From the NCBI GenBank assembly GCA_965230975.1, contig OZ246402.1, forward strand, positions 309,304-373,303: a DNA stretch of 64,000 bases, read 5' to 3'. Each line of letters opens with the position of its first letter. Position 1 is the first letter of the stretch. The notes below the pieces were generated by a model. The model was not told the origin of the DNA. It made no database searches and saw only the letters and a program-made list of their open reading frames with translations. The DNA comes from an uncultured Candidatus Saccharibacteria bacterium. Lineage in GTDB: Bacteria > Patescibacteriota > Dojkabacteria > J137. This document shows positions 2 through 15,329 of the stretch, one piece after another. A program made the position numbers and the translations under genes.

Positions 2-196
2 CATAGTATAAAGCTAAGCAAGCCGGGATTTGAGCAACTTGAATTTGTAATATTGCCTTCTAGCCAAGAAGAACGAGATAAACTTAAAAATTACAATATT
101 ATGATAGAAGCACATTTAATGTACCAACCTGTCAATGTAGAAGATATTATTCAAAACCCAACAGAGCAGTCAACTCAAGAACAAATACAAGAATAA
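2..196 (+). CDS. 3' end of an upstream gene (partial; open frame from the window edge to TAA at 194-196); product unknown
   Basis: The frame starting at position 2 has no stop until 194-196. The C-terminus reads ...EQSTQEQIQE*. No start codon lies inside the window. Confidence 0.35.
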   Translation, partial: HSIKLSKPGFEQLEFVILPSSQEERDKLKNYNIMIEAHLMYQPVNVEDIIQNPTEQSTQEQIQE

Positions 197-213: not shown

Positions 214-3200
214 ATGGTAGCTCAACAATTTAGATTAAAAAATACAGTTAAATACCCAACATCGTTAATTTTTGGGGGTCTTTCAAGATTAGGTCTTGAA
301 ATTACAGATTCGTTGTTAGAGCAGGGTGGTTATGTAGTAATTGTAGATACTTACTCAGATGAAAATATAGCAAAACTACAAGTATTTCCTAAAGATAGTC
401 TAATTAGTTTTATTGATTACACAACCCTACCAAACTTAGACGAAGATTTAAGAAGGCTTGATTATGTTTTCTTTTTTAACCATGAATCAACAGATTTAAA
501 TAGAAAGATTTCTACTCAAGAATTTTTGAAATTTTCTAACTATATAGATACCACACTAAGTTTAAGCACAAAATTCGAAGCAAAGTTTTTACTAACAACT
601 TCAATTCGATCACATCAACTTAATTTACACAATGATGATTACAAACTCTATAACCAAGAACATCACAAAACATATTCAGAAGCAGATTTGCAAAGGCACT
701 CTGAAAGTATGGTCATGGAATATATAGAAAAAAACAACTTGGATGCTCGAATTGCTAGATTAGGTGAGCTTATTGGAGATGGAATAGATTTTTCTATAGA
801 AAGCTCATTTAACAATCTTATTTTAGATGCAGCGAAAGGCCAAAGCCTTAAATTACATAAAGATGGTTTAGAAACAGAATGGTTAGTTCATATACTAGAT
901 GCAGCTTATGGAATTATAAAGTCTCAATTTTCAAAAAATACTAGTGGCAAAATATATTCTGTAGCATACGAAAACAATTTCTCGCATTTATCTATTGCGT
1001 ATAAATTACAGGAGGTAGAAGAAAATGCAGAAGAGATTGAATTTATAGAAGGCAGGGACAATTTGCCATCATTAAAAATATATAAACCAGCTCCAAACTT
1101 GGCAACAATAGGTTGGGCAACAAAAGTTCCATTTGAGAAAGCTTTAAAACAATCTGTAGCTGCGGCAAAAATATATTTACTAGAAAGTAGTTCTAAAACA
1201 GAAAAGAAAGATACAATTTCGGGTAAACTAAAAACTTTTTTTGCAATTGCAGGAAGTTCAGAATCTAGTACAACTAAAGATGAAACTGAATATGACGGAC
1301 CAATTTCAAGATTAATTGCAGAAAGAAAAAAACAAGAAGAGTTAAAACAGCAAAGTATAGATTTCGCAACCAGTTCTATTAAAATAAAAAAAAGAAAAAA
1401 GGCAAGAACGTTTCAAGAAAAGTTTAGCAACTGGGCTTGGGAAAAATCCCTCTCTATTGGAAATAGTTTTGCTTTATTTAAAAACAAATCACCCATAGAA
1501 TTTTTAGGTATATTTGTTGTATTTGGATTATTATTGTTTGTTTTTTTTACACTAATATCTCCACTACTAGTATTTACAAGAAATTACCTATCTATTAGTG
1601 GAGAGTATCAAAATACTGTAAACATAATAAAAAATAGCGAATGGTTAACTTCTTCAAATAATTTTAAAAAAGTAAAAGACACCTTGGATGAAAATATTCA
1701 AATACTATCAGGGTTTGATTCGATTTTTTCAATTACATCACTAGGAGATGAAAGTTCTGAAATCAAAAACGTTTTAAAAAATTATTCTGAAATCTTAGAT
1801 GGTGCTAACGATATCTCATTTGCATTAAATCCGGTTAGAGAATATTTAAATAATTATCAAGGGAATTTACAATTAAGAACAAGCACAGAAAGCTATCTAA
1901 GTGTTACTAATACAGGAGTAGATTATGAAAATTTTTTGCTAGACTTTCACGATGCATATCCATATTTGCAAACTGGCATTCAAAAATATCAAAAAGGAGT
2001 ATCTGACTTAAGAAAAACAAACATCTCTTTGCTACCAACTTTTATGCAACAAAATATTAGCGATATAAATAATGCTTTGTTTGCACTAGAAGATGATGTT
2101 GTTGCATTAGATAGGTTAGAATACCTAGAAGATATGCTTGGAGTTTACTTTCCAAGAACCTATGTTTTACTATTACTAGATAATTCAAGATTAAAAAGTA
2201 TTGGGGGTGAGGTTTCTGCATATGCGCTTTTTACAGTAAAAAACGGTAGCATAATAGAAGTTACAGTAAAATCACCCGAAGAAACTCAATTCAATTTATC
2301 AAGTATAGATGATAGAAAACTTCAAGAAATTAATGCAAATAAATATAATTTTAAAAATAAAGATAACCTAACCTTTAACGACTTAACAAGCTTAACCAGC
2401 TTTAGCACATTTGCAGATTACATAACTCCAATTTTTAAAGATACATTTAATAGAGAGGTTTCGGGGGTCCTAGCTATAGATTACTCTTCGTTGCAAAATT
2501 TACTTTTAAATTTAAGTGATAAAGAAGAGGTAAACGTTAACAATGTAAATTTTGCAAGTGGTGATATTTTAAGAAATTTAATTAGTGCGCAAAACATTAA
2601 TTCTGGTATAGATACTAAGCATAAAATTAGCGCACAATTATTAGCAAACTTAGTTAATCTTATGTTTAGCAATCCAAAGCAAAATATAAATACATTAATT
2701 TCCACTTTAGGCAAAGAGATTGATAATCAAAGTCTTCTAATTTCTACTCCAAACATAAAGTTTAACAAAATAGTAAAATCTCATAATTATGATTTAGAAA
2801 AGATTTCAGATTCAGATAGTTATGTAAAAATTGGGTATAACATAGATGATACTAAAGTCGTAAATATTGAAAAATACCCAGAACTTAATGTAGTAAAAGA
2901 GATAGCAATAAATCCTGAATTCAAACTAGATACTAAAGTAGTTGTCGATTTGCCACTATTGGGTAGCTCTCAGGAGTTAGTAGTTTGTATTCCTGCAAGA
3001 GTATTATCTAGTTCTATTAAAGTTACCGGTATCCCAAGTGCAAGGGTAGTAATCAACGATGCTCAAAATGAAAAATGTATAGTTGCAAGATCAATAACTG
3101 AAAAACAAATTCAATTTACATGGAGTTTAGATACCGTAAGTGTAGAAGGTGTAAAGCAACTTAAATTAAGTGTCGGGAAAATTAAAGGTACAAAATCATC

Positions 3201-3339
3201 TCTGGACTATAAAATTTCATTAGATAGCACATTAGATTTAGTAAAGTCACAGCCTTATGTCGCGCCACAAGGCAATACGCTTATATTCACAACCTTTTTA
3301 AACACAGATCAGATTGTAGATTTAGAGATTTCTAAATAA
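214..3339 (+). CDS. Large membrane protein with an N-terminal NAD(P)-binding Rossmann-like (epimerase/dehydratase-like) domain, a single TM helix and a ~580-aa C-terminal extracytoplasmic domain
   Basis: 1041-aa uninterrupted ORF. The N-terminus 'LIFGGLSRLGLEITDSLLEQGGYVVIVD' looks like a GxxGxxG dinucleotide-binding fold. There is a hydrophobic helix near aa 436-460 ('FLGIFVVFGLLLFVFFTLISPLLVF'). The rest has no recognisable family. Confidence 0.6.
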   Translation: MVAQQFRLKNTVKYPTSLIFGGLSRLGLEITDSLLEQGGYVVIVDTYSDENIAKLQVFPKDSLISFIDYTTLPNLDEDLRRLDYVFFFNHESTDLNRKISTQEFLKFSNYIDTTLSLSTKFEAKFLLTTSIRSHQLNLHNDDYKLYNQEHHKTYSEADLQRHSESMVMEYIEKNNLDARIARLGELIGDGIDFSIESSFNNLILDAAKGQSLKLHKDGLETEWLVHILDAAYGIIKSQFSKNTSGKIYSVAYENNFSHLSIAYKLQEVEENAEEIEFIEGRDNLPSLKIYKPAPNLATIGWATKVPFEKALKQSVAAAKIYLLESSSKTEKKDTISGKLKTFFAIAGSSESSTTKDETEYDGPISRLIAERKKQEELKQQSIDFATSSIKIKKRKKARTFQEKFSNWAWEKSLSIGNSFALFKNKSPIEFLGIFVVFGLLLFVFFTLISPLLVFTRNYLSISGEYQNTVNIIKNSEWLTSSNNFKKVKDTLDENIQILSGFDSIFSITSLGDESSEIKNVLKNYSEILDGANDISFALNPVREYLNNYQGNLQLRTSTESYLSVTNTGVDYENFLLDFHDAYPYLQTGIQKYQKGVSDLRKTNISLLPTFMQQNISDINNALFALEDDVVALDRLEYLEDMLGVYFPRTYVLLLLDNSRLKSIGGEVSAYALFTVKNGSIIEVTVKSPEETQFNLSSIDDRKLQEINANKYNFKNKDNLTFNDLTSLTSFSTFADYITPIFKDTFNREVSGVLAIDYSSLQNLLLNLSDKEEVNVNNVNFASGDILRNLISAQNINSGIDTKHKISAQLLANLVNLMFSNPKQNINTLISTLGKEIDNQSLLISTPNIKFNKIVKSHNYDLEKISDSDSYVKIGYNIDDTKVVNIEKYPELNVVKEIAINPEFKLDTKVVVDLPLLGSSQELVVCIPARVLSSSIKVTGIPSARVVINDAQNEKCIVARSITEKQIQFTWSLDTVSVEGVKQLKLSVGKIKGTKSSLDYKISLDSTLDLVKSQPYVAPQGNTLIFTTFLNTDQIVDLEISK

Positions 3340-3483: not shown

Positions 3484-4011
3484 ATGGCTAAGACAAAGAA
3501 ACCAACAATAGCACCAGAAAATGCTATTAAAATGACTCAAGAAGCTTACGATGAACTTGTAAAAGAACTTGATCATAGACAAAATACATTAAGAAAACAA
3601 ATTGCAGATGAAATAGCTGCAGCAAGAGAACTAGGCGATTTATCTGAAAATCACCCTTATACAGCTGCAATGGAAAAGAAAGAGTTAAACGAAAACAGAA
3701 TTACAGATATCGAAGACGTAATTATCAAAGCAGTAATTGCAGAAGAAAATGTCTCAGATCATTTTGTGAGTGTTGGTGAACAAGTAGAAATTGAAAACTT
3801 AGAAACTAATCAAAAAAAGACAGTTTTAATTGTTGGTTCAGAAGAAACCAGATCTGCAAATCCATTAGATGGAAAAATTTCCAGTGATTCACCAATCGGT
3901 AAAGCAATTATTAATGCAAAACTTGGAGATACTGTAGAAGTAGTATTGCCTACAAAAAAGATTAATTACAAAATTTTAAGATTTGTAAGAGAAGCTAAAA
4001 AGGCTGCATAA
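3484..4011 (+). CDS. greA: Transcription elongation factor GreA
   Basis: An N-terminal coiled-coil region is followed by the 'LGDLSENHPY' acidic finger-tip motif typical of GreA/GreB. The size (175 aa) fits. Confidence 0.85.
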   Translation: MAKTKKPTIAPENAIKMTQEAYDELVKELDHRQNTLRKQIADEIAAARELGDLSENHPYTAAMEKKELNENRITDIEDVIIKAVIAEENVSDHFVSVGEQVEIENLETNQKKTVLIVGSEETRSANPLDGKISSDSPIGKAIINAKLGDTVEVVLPTKKINYKILRFVREAKKAA

Positions 4012-4127: not shown

Positions 4128-4967
4128 TTACAAAAGAGTTAAGATAACTATTGCCCCAAATATAACTCTATAAATGCCAAAATCTCTCAAACCTCTTCTT
4201 TTTAAAAACGAGATCATGAACTTGATTGCAAAATAACCAAAAACAAAAGAGGTAATTAACCCACTCAAATAAATTGGCATATTACTAGAAAGAGTGTTGC
4301 CGTCTGTCTGTATAAGATCAATTGTTCCAAAAAGAGCGGCCATAAGTGTTATTGGTATACTCATTAAGAAACCAAATTCAGCTGCAGAAACCCTATTAAG
4401 CCCAACCGCTTGACCAGCTAGAAGTGTAATACCAGATCTCGATGTGCCTCTAAAAATAGCTATGGCTTGAGCAATACCAATAATTAAAGATTTCTTAGAA
4501 GTAAGCTTTTCTAAATCAAATTTTTTATTTGTGAATAATCTATTTGCAAAAATAAATATTACTCCAACAAAAATCATTGCAACAGCAGTTAATAAAGTTG
4601 CAAGCTTTGCATTTTCTGGTGCGTCATAAAGTTGCTCTATATATTTACTTAAGGCAAATCCTAAAATCCCCGCAGGGATTGTAGCAATTAAAATATTTAG
4701 CATGGTTTTTAGTGAATCGTTATCTTCTAATGTATTAGATCTTTTTAATAATCTAAAAAAACTTATAAAATATTTAATTAAAGTTTTTCTGTAATAAATA
4801 AATAAAGCCAGTAATGTACCAAAATGTAAAAAAGTAATAAACCCTGTGCTTGGCTCGCTCCAGTTAAAAAATTTTGGAACTAGTTCTAAGTGCCCAGAGC
4901 TTGATACGGGTATAAATTCTGTTAAGCCTTGAACAATTCCCAAAACAATTGATTCTAATAAACTCAT
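4128..4967 (-). CDS. uppP: Undecaprenyl-diphosphatase (UppP/BacA)
   Basis: N-terminal signature 'GIVQGLTEFIPVSSSGHL'. It is a polytopic membrane protein of 279 aa. Confidence 0.9.
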   Translation of the reverse strand: MSLLESIVLGIVQGLTEFIPVSSSGHLELVPKFFNWSEPSTGFITFLHFGTLLALFIYYRKTLIKYFISFFRLLKRSNTLEDNDSLKTMLNILIATIPAGILGFALSKYIEQLYDAPENAKLATLLTAVAMIFVGVIFIFANRLFTNKKFDLEKLTSKKSLIIGIAQAIAIFRGTSRSGITLLAGQAVGLNRVSAAEFGFLMSIPITLMAALFGTIDLIQTDGNTLSSNMPIYLSGLITSFVFGYFAIKFMISFLKRRGLRDFGIYRVIFGAIVILTLL

Positions 4968-5096: not shown

Positions 5097-5717
5097 ATGG
5101 GTAGTACACCAACCCCAGTTGAGCCAGTAGCACAAGCTCCAGTTCAACCTACTGCAACTCAAGTTGCAAAAAAATCAAATAAGAAATTACTTATTATTAT
5201 TGCAATAGTAGTTTTGTGTTTGTGCGTTAGCTCCTTAATAGCAATAGTTGCATTTGTATTACCTAGCTTGGCTTTAATCCCATTCTTTTCTATGGGTGGA
5301 CAAACAATTACTAATAACCCTTTAGAAAATACAACCGAAAATACATCAAATAACGATTCAGCTACATCGAACCCAGCAGATGATTCAAATTCTTGGTTTG
5401 ATGGATATACTCAAACAGAGATACCATCAGATTTCCCATCAGATGTAAAAATATATCCTAATGCAGTTGCATACATGACTTATGCATCAGAAGAAGGTAC
5501 AAGTGTTGGCTTTGCAGTACAAGCAAGCAATAATCAACTTTATAACTTTTATAGAACAGAGTTAGAAGATGCAGGTTGGGATATTTTATCTTCATCAAAT
5601 GCAGAAGGTTATGCATCTTTCATTGCATCTAAAGGTGACAGAGGTTTGGTAATTACAATTGGCAATTCAGATGATGAATCTAGCGATACAAATTACTTAG
5701 GAATTGTTTATTATTAA
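5097..5717 (+). CDS. Hypothetical membrane-anchored protein (short Pro/Val-rich cytoplasmic tail, one TM, extracytoplasmic domain)
   Basis: 206-aa ORF. A TM segment 'LLIIIAIVVLCLCVSSLIAIVAFVL' follows the 'KKSNKK' motif. No family match recognised. Confidence 0.5.
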   Translation: MGSTPTPVEPVAQAPVQPTATQVAKKSNKKLLIIIAIVVLCLCVSSLIAIVAFVLPSLALIPFFSMGGQTITNNPLENTTENTSNNDSATSNPADDSNSWFDGYTQTEIPSDFPSDVKIYPNAVAYMTYASEEGTSVGFAVQASNNQLYNFYRTELEDAGWDILSSSNAEGYASFIASKGDRGLVITIGNSDDESSDTNYLGIVYY

Positions 5718-8492: not shown

Positions 8493-9653
8493 GTGAAAAA
8501 CGCTCAGAAAAAAGGAGTTGTTAAAAACAGGACAAAGTTTTTACTATCATTATGTTCAATTTTGCTCTTATTACTCTTTTTATCTCAGTTTTATATAAAC
8601 AATTATTCACAAAACAAGCAGGAAACAAAAACAAATACTTTGAAATATAACGATCCATTAACGTTATCTGAACTTCCAATGTTTAATGAATCAAAAAATA
8701 ATTTAGATTTGCCAGAAAGTGATTACCAGCTTGTAGATACACAAAATTTATGGTTAAGCTTATTAACAGAAAGCTATCTAGATGTTGGGTTTTTAAACCA
8801 AAGCTTAGTTTTTAAAAGTATTACTCAGCTACCCACTAATACATCTAGCTTAAAAATATACAGTCCAGATAAGTTGATGTTTGTTTTGGAAAGTAGAAGT
8901 GGTTCTAGCCCAACGTTGATATATAAGAACAAAGGTGAGCTATTTGAAATTCTTGCATTAAATCCAAACGAATTCTTTACAGAATATTATTATTCGCCAC
9001 TCGAGCAACTTTTTTATATCTCTAAAGGTAATTCTTCAAATGTTTTTACTTTTTTTTATTTAAAACAAGATGGAAGTACAGAAACCTTGCTTGAATCAAC
9101 CTTGCCAATTAAGGTTTTAAAACCTATGTCTACATATTCAATAGTTTTGTTAAACAACGAATGCAAAACTTTAAACTATTACAGCAAGGAATTTCAGGAT
9201 TTTGATTGCAATAACCTATATTTGAACCCTTCTAATTTAAATCTAATTTCAAAATCAAGCCAACTTTTGCTAAGTAAAGATAATCGGGCTATTACAATTT
9301 TTAATAGTAATAAAGGTGATTTTATAACAGGTGCTACATTTTTTAATAATGAGGTTTATTTTGTTTTAAATAATTCAACATTCTCGTTAAATAATACTGC
9401 TTACAAAATAATGAAATCAAACCTAAGTGGCAACTTAGAGCTGGTTACTACAAGTATTCCGGAGGGTGATATAGTAAAAGTACTTAATTTTAATGGGGTT
9501 ATGGCAATAAATAAACTATTAGGTTCTTATCAAATTATAAAGCTTCAGACAGAAAACGTGGCATCTTACTTGCAAAATACCTGGACTAATGTAAATTTAA
9601 CTAATAATTTAATAAAAAACATTGAAATATTAGGCCCGGATTATCAAATCTAG
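8493..9653 (+). CDS. Hypothetical secreted/membrane-anchored protein
   Basis: 386 aa. It has an N-terminal signal-anchor 'FLLSLCSILLLLLFLSQFYI' and an Asn/Ser-rich body. No family recognised. Confidence 0.5.
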   Translation: MKNAQKKGVVKNRTKFLLSLCSILLLLLFLSQFYINNYSQNKQETKTNTLKYNDPLTLSELPMFNESKNNLDLPESDYQLVDTQNLWLSLLTESYLDVGFLNQSLVFKSITQLPTNTSSLKIYSPDKLMFVLESRSGSSPTLIYKNKGELFEILALNPNEFFTEYYYSPLEQLFYISKGNSSNVFTFFYLKQDGSTETLLESTLPIKVLKPMSTYSIVLLNNECKTLNYYSKEFQDFDCNNLYLNPSNLNLISKSSQLLLSKDNRAITIFNSNKGDFITGATFFNNEVYFVLNNSTFSLNNTAYKIMKSNLSGNLELVTTSIPEGDIVKVLNFNGVMAINKLLGSYQIIKLQTENVASYLQNTWTNVNLTNNLIKNIEILGPDYQI

Positions 9654-11857: not shown

Positions 11858-12225
11858 AGATTGCTTATATACTAATAAATATTTTAACCATAATGCTAAT
11901 AGGTGCATCTATTTTCTTTTTCTTGATTTCTAGAAATACTATAAATAAAGGTGACTTTAATCTAGAATATGTAATATCTTTAGAGGATAAAAGTATTACA
12001 TTTAAAAATAATGAACTTAATATTACAGATTTAGAAAATCAAGAATTTAGCATTAAAGCATCTAGTTATGTTGGTGATATAAAGCTTTTAAGTTCGATGT
12101 TTGGTGTTATAAAACAAGGAGATAATGAGGAATTATGGGTAAATAAAGGGGATTGTAATTATATATCTATAACATTTGTATCTGCGGATAAAATTAATAA
12201 TTTATACTGTATTAAATCTATCTAA
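11854..12225 (+). CDS. Hypothetical membrane-anchored protein
   Basis: 123 aa with an N-terminal TM segment. It is translationally coupled to both flanking ORFs (ATGA overlap at 11854 and TAATG overlap at 12225). Confidence 0.45.
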   Translation: MKIAYILINILTIMLIGASIFFFLISRNTINKGDFNLEYVISLEDKSITFKNNELNITDLENQEFSIKASSYVGDIKLLSSMFGVIKQGDNEELWVNKGDCNYISITFVSADKINNLYCIKSI

Positions 12226-14849
12226 TGAAACAAAAACTATTATTTACATTAATTCTGAGTGTAGCTTTTTCACTCTCAGGGTTTATTTTACCTGCTACAC
12301 ATACAAAGGTTTCTGCACAGGCTTGTACTTGTTGGCCTCCGGGAGCTACATCTGACCAAGGTTGTATGGCCTATGGATGTCCTACTGGAACAAGAAGGGT
12401 ATGTAATTGCAATGCGGGAGGTTCAGGAGGTGCCTGCACACCCGTTGCAGGTTGTGGGTCAACTTGTGGAGGATCATGGAGCTGTTATTGTCAACCTGAT
12501 GCATCATGCGGCGGCGGAGGAGGTGGTACAGCTTGCACACCAAATGCTCAAAGATGTAATGGTTGTGACAGAGTCCAATGCTTATCGGATGGTTCTGGTG
12601 AAATAATTATAGGTCCAGGTTCGTGTTGTACACCACCGCCCCCAGCATGCACTTCTACAGCACCTGCTGCAACAACCTTGGTGTCTCCTTCGAATAATGT
12701 AACTATACCCTCTAATTCTACGACGCTAAATTGGAATTCCAACAGTGCTTGGGGAACAGGATGTCCTTCAAACAATAATCAATACAGGGTGTTTTTAAGT
12801 CAAAATTGTACGGGAACATATACTAATATTGCAAATGTGGCCAGTTCTGTAACAAACTATAATCTATCGGGATTAACTTATGGAAGTTCTTATTGCTGGT
12901 ACGTTCAAACTTCAAATGGAAGTCAAACAGCAAATAGTGCTGTTTGGAGATTCACAGTGAATAACAATCCCTCTATAACTAGTTCCACTTTTGGTGCAGA
13001 TAGTTGTGGTTACAGTACTACAGGAAGGTTTGATTCAATATCCCCTAACAAAGTAAATCCTTTGACTTTTAATGTAGGTTTTAGTGATCCCGAGGCAGAT
13101 TTATTATCCGGAATCTTTATAGGTTTTGTTCCACAAAGTGCGTTAAATGCAAATACAGTCACATATGACCAGGTGTATTCTGCAGCTACAAATAATAATT
13201 CAATTGTAACTTTGCTGGGCTATTCAACTGCTGGGGTTCTGCAGAATAACTGGAGTTATAATATGCAATCTGGTGGGGTTGAAGTTCAAAATACTCCTGG
13301 TACAGCGACCCTCTTAGGTGCAGGTACTACTTCTAAAGTTACATACATAAGTCCTGGTAATTGGAACAGTAGTGTTACTATTAGGTTTGGAAATACATAT
13401 CCATCAGGCTTACAAAATGTTTATGTGATGGCAACTGTTTTGAACCCAGATGGAACTTATTCCACACCAAACCAGGGTTCATCGAGTTTATTAATGATGA
13501 CTAAAGTGGCAACCTGGTCATTTGATATGACTAATCCAACCGGCTCAATTGTATTAAGCAACTATGTTGGCAGTAATTTTACTGCTGCATGGAGTGGTTC
13601 AGATGCAAGTGGGTTAAAAAATGCATATTCGTATATTATTGCAGGTAGTAGTGGATCGACACTAACAGATACAACTGGTGGATACGCAATTAACCCACTA
13701 GGCACTGCAGATATGAATTACCCAACACCTTCAAACGCTGGTATTGGAATTGCTAATTTGCCAACTACTAGGAATTATACATTTACAGGTGTGTCTGACT
13801 ACACACTTAAACTAGCATTAGAAGACAGAGCTTGTAACGTTTATACTGCAACTGCAGGAGCAGTTATACCTACCTCATGGATATATTCTCGAGAAGGTAT
13901 AGTTTCTGCAAATGGAGGTATTTTAAACATTAAGATTCCAACTACAGTAGGGTCAATGAATATTACTGATTTAATAACACCGAACCCACCAACCGGTAAT
14001 AGTTCTTCACCTTATACAACCGCAAATAACTTTGTTGCAGAATCTCCATTGAAACTTGGTACAGGTAGTGTAATATCAGGGACTGGTACACTTCCTACTC
14101 CAGTAGCAACTATTTCTGCCAAAGATAGGTATACTTACAACTATTCTAATCAAGCTACGACGCCAGATACTAGATCAAATACAACTAATTGGTATAGTTA
14201 TGTTCTAGATTTGCTAAATAGTAATAATGCAAGCAATATACTTGCAGAAGGAACTTCTGGTTCTATTTATATTAGCGGTTCGGTTAGCACCTATCTAAAT
14301 GCAGTACTACAATTTTATAGAGGCCCAAGTGCACTTTCAGATACAACATCTATCTATACAATTCATATCCCATCTGGGCAAATGATATTTAATACCCTTA
14401 ACTGTGATAGAAGAGTTGTATTTATCTCTCCAAACCCAATGACACTTGTTCCAAACATAACTCGTAGTGGAACTGGAGGGTGCATTTTTGTGTCTGGTGG
14501 TAACGTCACTGTCTCTGCAGGTGGAAACTTAACTACAACTCCGCTTGCTACGGGTGGTAATTCCTCTTACGATGTCATAAACGGTTATATAATTTCTAAC
14601 GGAAGTTTTATATCAACTAAAGATAATGCTCAATCAGGTCCAAGCGATACTCCAGCTACAAGACAATGGGATGGGATGCTAATCAAAGGTGGTGTTTTGG
14701 CAACCAATGTAAGCTTAAATAGAAGCTTAAATTCTAGTGGAAATGCAGATCAACCTGCAGAAATTTATCAGTACGATCCATTCTATTCACTTACCTTTAA
14801 AGATGCATTGGCAAGCAGATTCTACACAATTAGAGAATATATTCCATAA
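12225..14849 (+). CDS. Large secreted Cys-rich surface protein (signal peptide, ~110-aa Cys/Gly-rich module, Fn3-like domain, long Ser/Thr/Asn-rich beta-rich region)
   Basis: 874 aa. Predicted signal peptide ending 'VSAQA'. Cys-rich stretch CTCWPPG...CCTPPPPAC. An Fn3-like segment 'LNWNSNSAWG...YCWYVQTSNG...WRFTV'. No C-terminal anchor. Confidence 0.6.
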   Translation: MKQKLLFTLILSVAFSLSGFILPATHTKVSAQACTCWPPGATSDQGCMAYGCPTGTRRVCNCNAGGSGGACTPVAGCGSTCGGSWSCYCQPDASCGGGGGGTACTPNAQRCNGCDRVQCLSDGSGEIIIGPGSCCTPPPPACTSTAPAATTLVSPSNNVTIPSNSTTLNWNSNSAWGTGCPSNNNQYRVFLSQNCTGTYTNIANVASSVTNYNLSGLTYGSSYCWYVQTSNGSQTANSAVWRFTVNNNPSITSSTFGADSCGYSTTGRFDSISPNKVNPLTFNVGFSDPEADLLSGIFIGFVPQSALNANTVTYDQVYSAATNNNSIVTLLGYSTAGVLQNNWSYNMQSGGVEVQNTPGTATLLGAGTTSKVTYISPGNWNSSVTIRFGNTYPSGLQNVYVMATVLNPDGTYSTPNQGSSSLLMMTKVATWSFDMTNPTGSIVLSNYVGSNFTAAWSGSDASGLKNAYSYIIAGSSGSTLTDTTGGYAINPLGTADMNYPTPSNAGIGIANLPTTRNYTFTGVSDYTLKLALEDRACNVYTATAGAVIPTSWIYSREGIVSANGGILNIKIPTTVGSMNITDLITPNPPTGNSSSPYTTANNFVAESPLKLGTGSVISGTGTLPTPVATISAKDRYTYNYSNQATTPDTRSNTTNWYSYVLDLLNSNNASNILAEGTSGSIYISGSVSTYLNAVLQFYRGPSALSDTTSIYTIHIPSGQMIFNTLNCDRRVVFISPNPMTLVPNITRSGTGGCIFVSGGNVTVSAGGNLTTTPLATGGNSSYDVINGYIISNGSFISTKDNAQSGPSDTPATRQWDGMLIKGGVLATNVSLNRSLNSSGNADQPAEIYQYDPFYSLTFKDALASRFYTIREYIP

Positions 14850-14876: not shown

Positions 14877-15329
14877 ATGATTGTAAAAGAACTAAACCTT
14901 GTCCATCAAGAAAACCTTGTAGTTGAAATTAAAGAAGACACAGAACTACTCTTTAAATATGTTGGTATTAAAGATACCCAATTTAAAACTAAGGTTACTT
15001 TTCTACATAAATTACCAAATATAAAATCTAGAATAAATATTAGAGCGGTAGTTTTTGATAATGCTAAATTTGATCTAGAAGGTATATTGCAAATAGATAA
15101 AGGAGCAACAGGTACGGATACTTATTTAAAAATAGATTGTTTGGTTGTTGGAGATAATTCTTTTGCAAGAGCAATTCCATCTTTGGAGATAAAAGAATCA
15201 GAAGTTAAAGGAGGTCACGGAGCGACTATAGGTTATATAGATGAATCCCAACTTAATTATTTATACTCCAAGGGTTTAAGTAAACATATTTCAGAACAGC
15301 TTGTAGTAGACGCCTTTATTAATTCCTAA
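14877..15329 (+). CDS. Mini SufB/SufD-like protein (C-terminal beta-helix/SufC-interaction domain only)
   Basis: 'VKGGHGATIGYIDESQLNYLYSKGLSKHISEQLVVDAFI' aligns with the SufD/SufB C-terminal motif (SHGATVGRIDDEQIFYLRSRGI...AF). The ORF is bounded upstream by an in-frame TAA at 14853, so it is only 150 aa. Confidence 0.6.
   Translation: MIVKELNLVHQENLVVEIKEDTELLFKYVGIKDTQFKTKVTFLHKLPNIKSRINIRAVVFDNAKFDLEGILQIDKGATGTDTYLKIDCLVVGDNSFARAIPSLEIKESEVKGGHGATIGYIDESQLNYLYSKGLSKHISEQLVVDAFINS

Follow-up and report, generated by a model that had tools for sequence, protein, structure and literature searches.

Domains of the short-chain dehydrogenase/reductase (SDR) fold can sit at the membrane in surface-glycan pathways, as in WbpM, PglF and CapD, and the fold can lose catalysis and yet stay as a ligand-binding module, as in NmrA and HSCARG. 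Across the membrane, the LCP (LytR-CpsA-Psr) proteins, glycopolymer transferases that join sugar polymers to the cell wall, hold a polyprenyl chain in a hydrophobic tunnel; in Cps2A, D234 and D246 hold Mg2+ and R267, R362 and R374 bind pyrophosphate (PMC7831098). No LCP protein is known with a cytoplasmic SDR-like domain (LCP review, PMC7831098). A further family, DUF4012, is listed among those enriched in the candidate phyla radiation (CPR) and Gram-positive bacteria (PMC6744442), and in the exopolysaccharide cluster of Bifidobacterium longum 105-A a DUF4012 gene, BL105A_0406, lies between the priming glycosyltransferase gene and wzz (PMC5412050). Here we describe a gene that joins an SDR-like domain to a DUF4012 ectodomain. 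It lies at positions 214-3339 of a 64,000-nucleotide stretch of contig OZ246402.1 (assembly GCA_965230975.1, positions 309,304 to 373,303), called the window below, with a G+C content of about 31%, from an uncultured Candidatus Saccharibacteria bacterium that GTDB places in the Dojkabacteria. We tentatively read its product as a bitopic, two-sided envelope-assembly factor, in which the DUF4012 module and a PEGA-domain partner would act on glycan outside the cell and a catalytically dead domain similar to UDP-xylose synthase (UXS, also called UDP-glucuronate decarboxylase) would serve as a ligand-binding or dimerising scaffold inside. What we rate as new is a DUF4012 envelope protein with an LCP-like fold and an unprecedented cytoplasmic dead-SDR appendage. 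The envelopes of CPR bacteria (Patescibacteria) are almost uncharacterised, and the protein is of moderate interest, chiefly as an entry point into their biology.

Architecture and conservation of the fusion

The reading frame runs from an ATG at 214 to a stop codon at 3337-3339 and encodes 1041 aa, as a sequence-only reading of this stretch had reported. Its parts are as follows.

214..3339, + strand: whole gene; bitopic membrane protein made of an apparent SDR-like pseudoenzyme, a linker, one transmembrane (TM) helix and a DUF4012 ectodomain
214..1203, + strand: cytoplasmic UXS-like extended-SDR domain, catalytically degenerate (aa 1-330); key positions are the Gly-loop G21-G22-L-S24-R-L-G27, D45, D68, T128-T129-S130, Y154, E156 and Q160
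1204..1494, + strand: cytoplasmic linker (aa 331-427) with a conserved 'SRLIAERKxQE' and a K/R-rich IKIKKRKKAR ahead of the membrane
1495..1578, + strand: single TM helix (aa 428-455), Pro450 invariant
1579..2133, + strand: stalk or bundle of helices outside the cell (aa 456-640), R555 lying on a small beta-hairpin
2134..2817, + strand: DUF4012 alpha/beta core, LCP-like in its modelled fold (aa 641-868); conserved set D656, N657, R659, G664, G665, G678, N707, D723 and R/K802
2818..3336, + strand: C-terminal all-beta module (aa 869-1041), with C925 and C955

The only 19-residue segment with a Kyte-Doolittle value above 1.6 in the whole 1041-aa protein falls at aa 428-455. There is thus exactly one hydrophobic helix, as the sequence-only reading had proposed, although it had placed this helix at aa 436-460. 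In all 38 aligned family members, Lys and Arg are more numerous before the helix than after it, in line with the positive-inside rule; the mean net charge is +3.6 over the 30 K/R-rich residues preceding the helix and -1.0 after it. The protein's only cysteines, C925 and C955, are both invariant and both follow the helix, and they presumably form a disulfide. Because the K/R-rich flank precedes the helix and the invariant cysteines follow it, the predicted topology is N-in/C-out, which the sequence-only reading had likewise assumed.

A homologue search covering 5.8 billion proteins returned 177 matches. Among the matches listed are at least 120 clusters, nearly all of about 1040 aa, with roughly 100% query coverage and 29-99% identity, and the named sources of full-length homologues are Candidatus Dojkabacteria. 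A scan of one genome per species, complete genomes included, gave 68 loci with the fusion. Most of these are titled Dojkabacteria or WS6 and a few Patescibacteria or Doudnabacteria; one bulk-submission block carries the label 'uncultured Saccharibacteria', a label that could not be verified. The fusion is a conserved gene and a hallmark of Dojkabacteria, found also in at least WWE3, which answers the question of its conservation across CPR raised by the sequence-only reading. Databases already name such proteins 'DUF4012 domain-containing protein', 'NAD(P)-dependent oxidoreductase' or 'nucleoside-diphosphate-sugar epimerase'. A literature search found no paper describing the fusion, its pseudoenzyme nature or an LCP-like fold in DUF4012, and searches on Dojkabacteria cell walls and on pseudo-SDRs found nothing specific.

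A UXS-like cytoplasmic SDR domain

The N-terminal beta-alpha-beta element with an acidic residue at the end of beta2, on which a Rossmann/SDR assignment had been based, corresponds to aa 18-45, LIFGGLSRLGLEITDSLLEQGGYVVIVD, with Asp45 closing the second strand. Pfam Epimerase (PF01370) matches aa 18-249 at 21.6 bits, just over its cutoff of 20.9, and 37 of the 38 family members match it. Among proteins of solved structure, human UXS1 matches best (E 2.5e-9, aa 18-315), and TIGR01181 (dTDP-glucose 4,6-dehydratase) aligns over aa 18-316, far under its cutoff. The extended-SDR domain of the fusion aligns with UXS over about 300 aa, the C-terminal, substrate-domain half matching best. Human UXS1 is likewise membrane-anchored; it is a type II protein of the Golgi whose enzyme part lies in the lumen. 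In the fusion, by contrast, a linker and a TM helix connect the domain with an ectodomain of 580 aa.

The active site of human UXS1 comprises Thr118, Tyr147 and Lys151 plus the UXS-specific Ser119, Glu120 and Arg277, and its Y147F mutant is inactive (PMC3438964). We mapped these residues through both a single-sequence alignment and a family-profile alignment, counting columns over 161 full-length fusion proteins. The fusions retain the acidic residue that ends beta2 at the NAD ribose contact position (D45, kept in 160/161), D68 (138/161) and, at the Thr118 position, a serine (S130; Ser in 133/161). The catalytic dyad is gone. Tyr147 falls at position 156, which is E, D or N in the window's clade and E, D, N or H across the fusions, and Lys151 corresponds to Q160 (Gln in 130/161); Tyr and Lys occur together in none of the 161. 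The protein does contain an invariant tyrosine, Y154, with Glu rather than Lys four residues on. The UXS-specific set is not retained either: Ser119 is replaced by I131, Glu120 by R/K132 (a reversal of charge) and Arg277 by a conserved Lys within 'LKLYKP', and the substrate loop 'RIFNTFGP' reads 'RLGELIGD' in the window protein. Nor does G21-G22-L-S24-R-L-G27 satisfy the TGxxGxxG loop. Its middle glycine is S, N, D or T in 138 of the 161 fusions; Gly occurs in only 16, all from a distant group, and never in the window's clade.

Degenerate as it is, this domain is better conserved than any other part of the protein: its top residues have a mean frequency of 0.64, vs 0.33-0.44 in the ectodomain. 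As far as residue conservation can tell, such a pattern marks a pseudoenzyme kept for a role in binding or assembly, and not a decaying remnant. The sequence-only reading had entertained two views of this module, and they fared differently. That of an active membrane-tethered epimerase or dehydratase is unsupported because the catalytic dyad and, in the clade, the middle glycine of the dinucleotide motif are lost, and we reject an active UXS or epimerase on these motif grounds. The other, a degenerate and structural Rossmann module lacking a clear YxxxK dyad, is supported by the residues found.

Relatives of the fusion form a series. When 1.84 billion representatives were searched exhaustively with the ectodomain (HMMER), 192 of them matched; scored with a profile of the SDR part, they fall into four groups, group 1 being the window's type. 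Group 2 consists of fusions of about 980-1080 aa with canonical cofactor motifs (GGAGFIGS, VDN, DYIFHLA, SS and '...EAKRFAE', Lys included) in which His, Leu or Phe takes the place of the Tyr; candidate division WWE3 is the source of one cluster. Group 3 comprises proteins of about 965-1130 aa with a cytoplasmic N-domain of about 380-460 aa, one TM helix and DUF4012. No Pfam family matched this N-domain, which opens with a Rossmann-like but glycine-free beta-alpha-beta ('KVLLISxxxxLSxxI...FYKIIWVYGF'); against the SDR-domain profile it is in the right register and non-significant (hhalign P 0.034). Its members are P0269, P0270, P0280, P0294, P0297, P0299 (at L078 6001-9066), P0314, P0316, P0327, P0334, P0335 and P0340. 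Group 4 holds the DUF4012 proteins that stand alone, about 560-740 aa in length. The genes of groups 2 and 3 have the same neighbours, RNase H on the upstream side and, downstream, L25 and a class-I tRNA synthetase, and this common setting suggests that the two groups are orthologous. The group 3 N-domain may then be a fully decayed SDR domain, a possibility that we keep as a synteny-backed hint only. The catalytic Tyr is missing in every fusion examined, and the cofactor motifs appear to have decayed thereafter to differing extents by lineage. The series would make this decay visible, from intact cofactor motifs through a degenerate loop to, possibly, an unrecognisable domain.

A derived DUF4012 ectodomain

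The roughly 580 residues after the helix had been described as novel and without a recognisable family. They belong to DUF4012. The Pfam model (PF13196) matches aa 647-764 (E 8.5e-11; 43 bits vs a cutoff of 28) and is matched by 37 of 38 members, and aa 452-1041 align end to end with stand-alone DUF4012 proteins (hhalign probability 99.95%, E 1.3e-37, 567 columns), so that the whole ectodomain is a full DUF4012. The stand-alone proteins form at least 3,538 clusters and are very common in Patescibacteria. Stalk, core and beta module are homologous between the two; in both kinds of protein the domain lies outside, anchored by a TM helix on its N-terminal side, and the structure models, confident for our ectodomain, predict the same three-part fold. 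The stand-alone proteins differ in being typically about 650 aa long with only a short cytoplasmic tail, and in lacking the Cys925-Cys955 pair that the window's clade has added.

The clade has also moved away from the family's signature. Typical DUF4012 proteins carry 'FQNNxELRPTGGFIG ... DxNWxPDFP ... DGVIA'; in the window's clade the first motif reads 'LLDNxRPxPxGG', and the residues NNxELRPTGGF, DxNWxPDFP and DGV are not retained. From typical to window type, N265 becomes D656 and E268 becomes R659, and R270 is variable. In their place the clade has a conserved set of its own: D656 (100%), N657 (94%), N707 (93%), the glycines G664, G665 and G678 (98-100%), D723 (Asp in 82%, acidic in 86%), R/K802 (basic in 100%), R555 (basic in 91%), R659 (basic in 79%) and the two cysteines (100%).

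Two independent models of proteins about 17% identical predict an LCP-like alpha-beta-alpha core, extracellular and behind an N-terminal TM anchor. In structure comparison the helical part gave only generic bundle matches, and the remaining fold matches appear to be helical-bundle or beta-domain, with no other alpha/beta enzyme family. On these models the DUF4012 core has the LCP fold, and it may be a distant LCP relative. In sequence the signal is weak. An hhalign comparison of the fusion family with a profile of 53 genuine LCP fragments gave, over aa 647-783, a P of 0.0011 and a probability of 21%. Once filters were switched off, 21 of 329 DUF4012 proteins scored above 5 bits against the LCP profile vs 0 reversed controls, always on the same strand-helix-strand element. 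In the hhalign alignment, which is of low confidence, the fully conserved D656 takes the position of Cps2A D234; R362 and R374 fall outside the LCP fragments that could be aligned. A predicted LCP fold gives DUF4012 its first testable biochemical hypothesis, the handling of polyprenyl-phosphate-linked glycans. We also considered a Wzz/PCP-like co-polymerase (PF02706), in which two TM helices flank a periplasmic helical domain, and rejected it: the protein has one TM helix and no Wzz-family match.

Gene neighbourhoods and possible roles

The genes flanking the fusion in the window are the following.

2..196, + strand: 3' end of the PEGA partner gene (last 64 codons and stop), the rest being cut off by the window edge
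3484..4011, + strand: greA (Pfam GreA_GreB_N and GreA_GreB)

The partner was recognised from its frame-2 translation, '...KPGFEQLEFVILPSSQEERDKLKNYNIMIEAHLMYQPV...', which agrees with the C-terminal end encoded by the gene that precedes the homologue in locus L001. It is a protein of about 215-230 aa with an N-terminal TM anchor and PEGA-type beta domains; the Pfam PEGA model matches its orthologues in L063 (E 1.2e-18), L071 (1.4e-11) and L004 (3.2e-6). In every locus with enough upstream DNA (64/64), the PEGA gene immediately precedes the fusion gene in the same direction, and it often overlaps that gene or ends within a few bases of it. Downstream, greA follows in 52 of 62 loci, an adjacency that is probably gene-order conservation only. 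No terminator-like site was found between the fusion gene and greA, and a promoter and terminator scan around the fusion gene gave nothing above chance.

Several related loci place the pair among glycan genes. In one subclade (9/9 loci) the order is a WecA-like Glycos_transf_4 gene (polyprenyl-P sugar-1-P transferase), PEGA, fusion; the WecA-like family makes the polyprenyl-PP-sugar bond that is the substrate of LCP enzymes. At L071 1718-3286 (+) a canonical LCP gene (522 aa; PF03816, E 4.5e-29) precedes the PEGA gene by 9 bases, with the fusion next in line; it is the only LCP gene beside the pair among the 68 loci. Since a canonical LCP protein is encoded there as well, the fusion is not simply the LCP protein of Dojkabacteria. 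Upstream of group 2 fusions lies a divergently transcribed Wzz-like gene, and one of these fusions is followed by two FemAB genes. Stand-alone DUF4012 genes occur in three Patescibacteria genomes in a block of glycosyltransferase (GT) and other genes, GT2 - Wzy_C - GT2 - GT2 - DUF4012 - MreB - GT4, in which the DUF4012 gene overlaps the upstream GT2 gene. In the same block, mreB starts a few bases from the DUF4012 stop (L073 8016-9020, L074 7948-8955, L075 7983-8990), a conserved link of the cell-shape actin homologue with a surface-glycan cluster.

These observations led us to a reading with two sides, which we judge possible at a little short of an even chance. Outside, the helical stalk, the LCP-fold alpha/beta core and a disulfide-stabilised beta-sandwich would form a complete DUF4012 module that, with the co-transcribed, membrane-anchored PEGA partner, would bind or process, at the membrane's outer face, a glycan linked to polyprenyl phosphate or to the wall. 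Inside, the domain, taken to descend from a UXS-like extended SDR, would convert no sugar nucleotides, because the catalytic Tyr and Lys and, in the clade, the canonical dinucleotide-binding glycine are lost. It could instead bind a ligand such as NAD or a UDP-sugar without catalysis, or act in dimerisation or scaffolding, and in doing so would connect the outer module with the part of its pathway that lies in the cytoplasm. The link to envelope carbohydrate is circumstantial and comes from the LCP-like fold and the gene neighbourhoods. Of the envelope-coupled carbohydrate role suggested by the sequence-only reading, this general link stands and the active enzyme does not. The fusion of Dojkabacteria and WWE3 offers a clear case of a sugar-nucleotide enzyme domain recruited, apparently inactivated and kept under strong selection across the membrane from the ectodomain.

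A number of points weigh against this reading. In 114 window-type fusions only 9 of 33 near-invariant core positions of DUF4012 are kept (the C-terminal module lies outside the scored alignment), and for this reason the clade's ectodomain may itself be non-catalytic, a binding module only. The relation to LCP is structural only and comes from models. PF03816 matches none of the 38 members at E up to 10, and stand-alone DUF4012 proteins are not significantly similar to LCP (hhalign P 0.1); membership of LCP at the sequence level is accordingly unsupported, and by profile comparison DUF4012 does not appear to belong to PF03816. The fusion further appears to differ from Cps2A, TagT/U/V and LcpA in that, in the low-confidence alignment, the position of D246 is Ser or Ala and that of R267 (in 'PRD') is not conserved. 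If the ectodomain is an enzyme, its chemistry would, on account of these two positions, not simply be that of LCP proteins. Most Dojkabacteria have the pair behind ribosomal-protein genes and ahead of greA rather than within a glycan cluster, and no WecA-like or LCP gene lies within the 64 kb of the window. A literature search turned up no biochemical work on DUF4012 proteins.

Some of these points lend themselves to another explanation, in which both halves are degenerate and the protein is an inert scaffold or spacer that works with its PEGA partner, for example as an S-layer or wall-layer anchor, binding no glycolipid and sensing no ligand. PEGA domains are typical of surface-layer-type proteins (Pfam description), 24 of the 33 near-invariant core positions are lost, including N265/E268/R270 and DxNWxPDFP, the SDR dyad is lost as well, and the gene pair occupies a housekeeping site, preceded by rplM-rpsI in 25 loci. 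A passive spacer would hardly need an invariant polar core set such as D656, N657 and R/K802, nor would it account for the strong purifying selection on the nucleotide-binding positions D45 and D68 or for the recurrence of glycan-pathway neighbours in related loci. We consider it unlikely, if still worth keeping in mind.

The layout of an ectodomain, a single TM helix and a cytoplasmic ligand-binding domain also resembles that of a receptor. DUF4012 could sense the state of the wall or surface glycan, and a dead, NmrA-like SDR domain could provide the cytoplasmic output through NAD(H) or a partner protein. There is precedent in NmrA and HSCARG, non-catalytic SDRs that serve as NAD(P)(H)-dependent regulators, and a transcription factor gene, greA, is the conserved downstream neighbour. 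NmrA-type proteins are, unlike the fusion, soluble and not joined to an extracytoplasmic domain. Domain searches found no DNA-binding, kinase, cyclase or other output domain, the greA adjacency is missing in one subclade and in other classes, and the ectodomain of group 3, if that group is orthologous, functions with no sensor or output module that can be recognised. A sensor is in our view rather unlikely.

A bolder version of the two-sided reading has the dead UXS-like domain bind a cytoplasmic nucleotide (NAD(H) or a UDP-sugar) and control the outer LCP-fold module through the TM helix and stalk, the outer module attaching or trimming a polyprenyl-PP-linked glycan. Such inside-out coupling is improbable on what we have. 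If true, it would be a new way to match surface-polymer attachment with cytoplasmic precursor supply, and DUF4012, among the most widespread of the CPR-enriched families, would be a second, unrecognised branch of the LCP superfamily with an active-site chemistry of its own. Should the halves communicate, the protein would be a simple case, offered by nature, in which to study how wall-polymer assembly is coupled to metabolism across the membrane; should they not, it would still be a lineage marker and a likely essential envelope component, given that the gene ends a ribosomal-protein operon in many genomes.

An active, membrane-tethered sugar-nucleotide enzyme in the manner of WbpM, PglF or CapD, producing, at the membrane, a modified UDP-sugar that goes into an envelope polymer, would need a non-canonical mechanism, for example through the invariant Y154. 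In its favour are the match to UXS and dTDP-glucose 4,6-dehydratase across the whole domain of about 300 aa, the conservation of Y154, T128-T129-S130, D45 and D68, and the JGI names of relatives, 'nucleoside-diphosphate-sugar epimerase' or 'UDP-glucuronate decarboxylase'. Such automatic names stem from the weak Pfam match only. WbpM-type proteins have N-terminal multi-TM anchors and an intact catalytic triad, and, unlike the fusion, lack an ectodomain. With Gln in place of Lys151, E/D/N in place of Tyr147 (a position where Phe alone inactivates human UXS1), Glu four residues after Y154, S/N/D/T at the middle of the glycine loop, Ile and Lys/Arg at the Ser119 and Glu120 positions and 'RLGELIGD' as the substrate loop, this activity is very unlikely. 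Finally, the suspicion that an assembly error or frameshift had joined two genes, for which nothing was found, is ruled out for practical purposes by the at least 120 full-length homologue clusters among the matches listed, the 68 loci and the occurrence in other CPR classes.

The rest of the window contains no second DUF4012 gene within its 64 kb, and around the fusion gene it carries the housekeeping genes greA, uppP/bacA, rpiB, dnaG, rplS, rnhB and fusA. Just past greA, at 4128-4967 (-), lies the gene for the undecaprenyl-diphosphatase BacA/UppP (E 1.9e-73), and the equivalent position in L001 (11988-12659, -) holds a UbiA-family prenyltransferase; both families act on polyprenyl compounds. 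The uppP adjacency is not conserved in other loci (L002, L004). In these two, greA is followed by genes for PrgI-like, TraC-like and VirB4/TraG-type P-loop proteins (L002 11635-15354, L004 11673-15349), a type-IV-secretion or conjugation-like module beside the conserved trio.

Further along the window, an 874-aa reading frame at 12225-14849 (+) has a signal-peptide-like start, a Cys/Gly-rich N-terminal stretch of about 130 aa and an Fn3-like stretch (PDB 3mpc, E 0.009), matches no Pfam family and coincides with a local rise in G+C to 0.38. Its product is probably secreted, a large surface protein with no relation to the SufBD fragment next to it, and on these features we rejected a SufB insertion or intein. 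The fragment, a 150-aa reading frame at 14877-15329 (+), covers no more of the SufBD core domain than its C-terminal half (106-232 of 232) and could be a truncated or split Suf component. Two further reading frames, at 5097-5717 (+; 206 aa) and 8493-9653 (+; 386 aa), have N-terminal hydrophobic anchors and no Pfam family, and look like uncharacterised envelope or secreted proteins.

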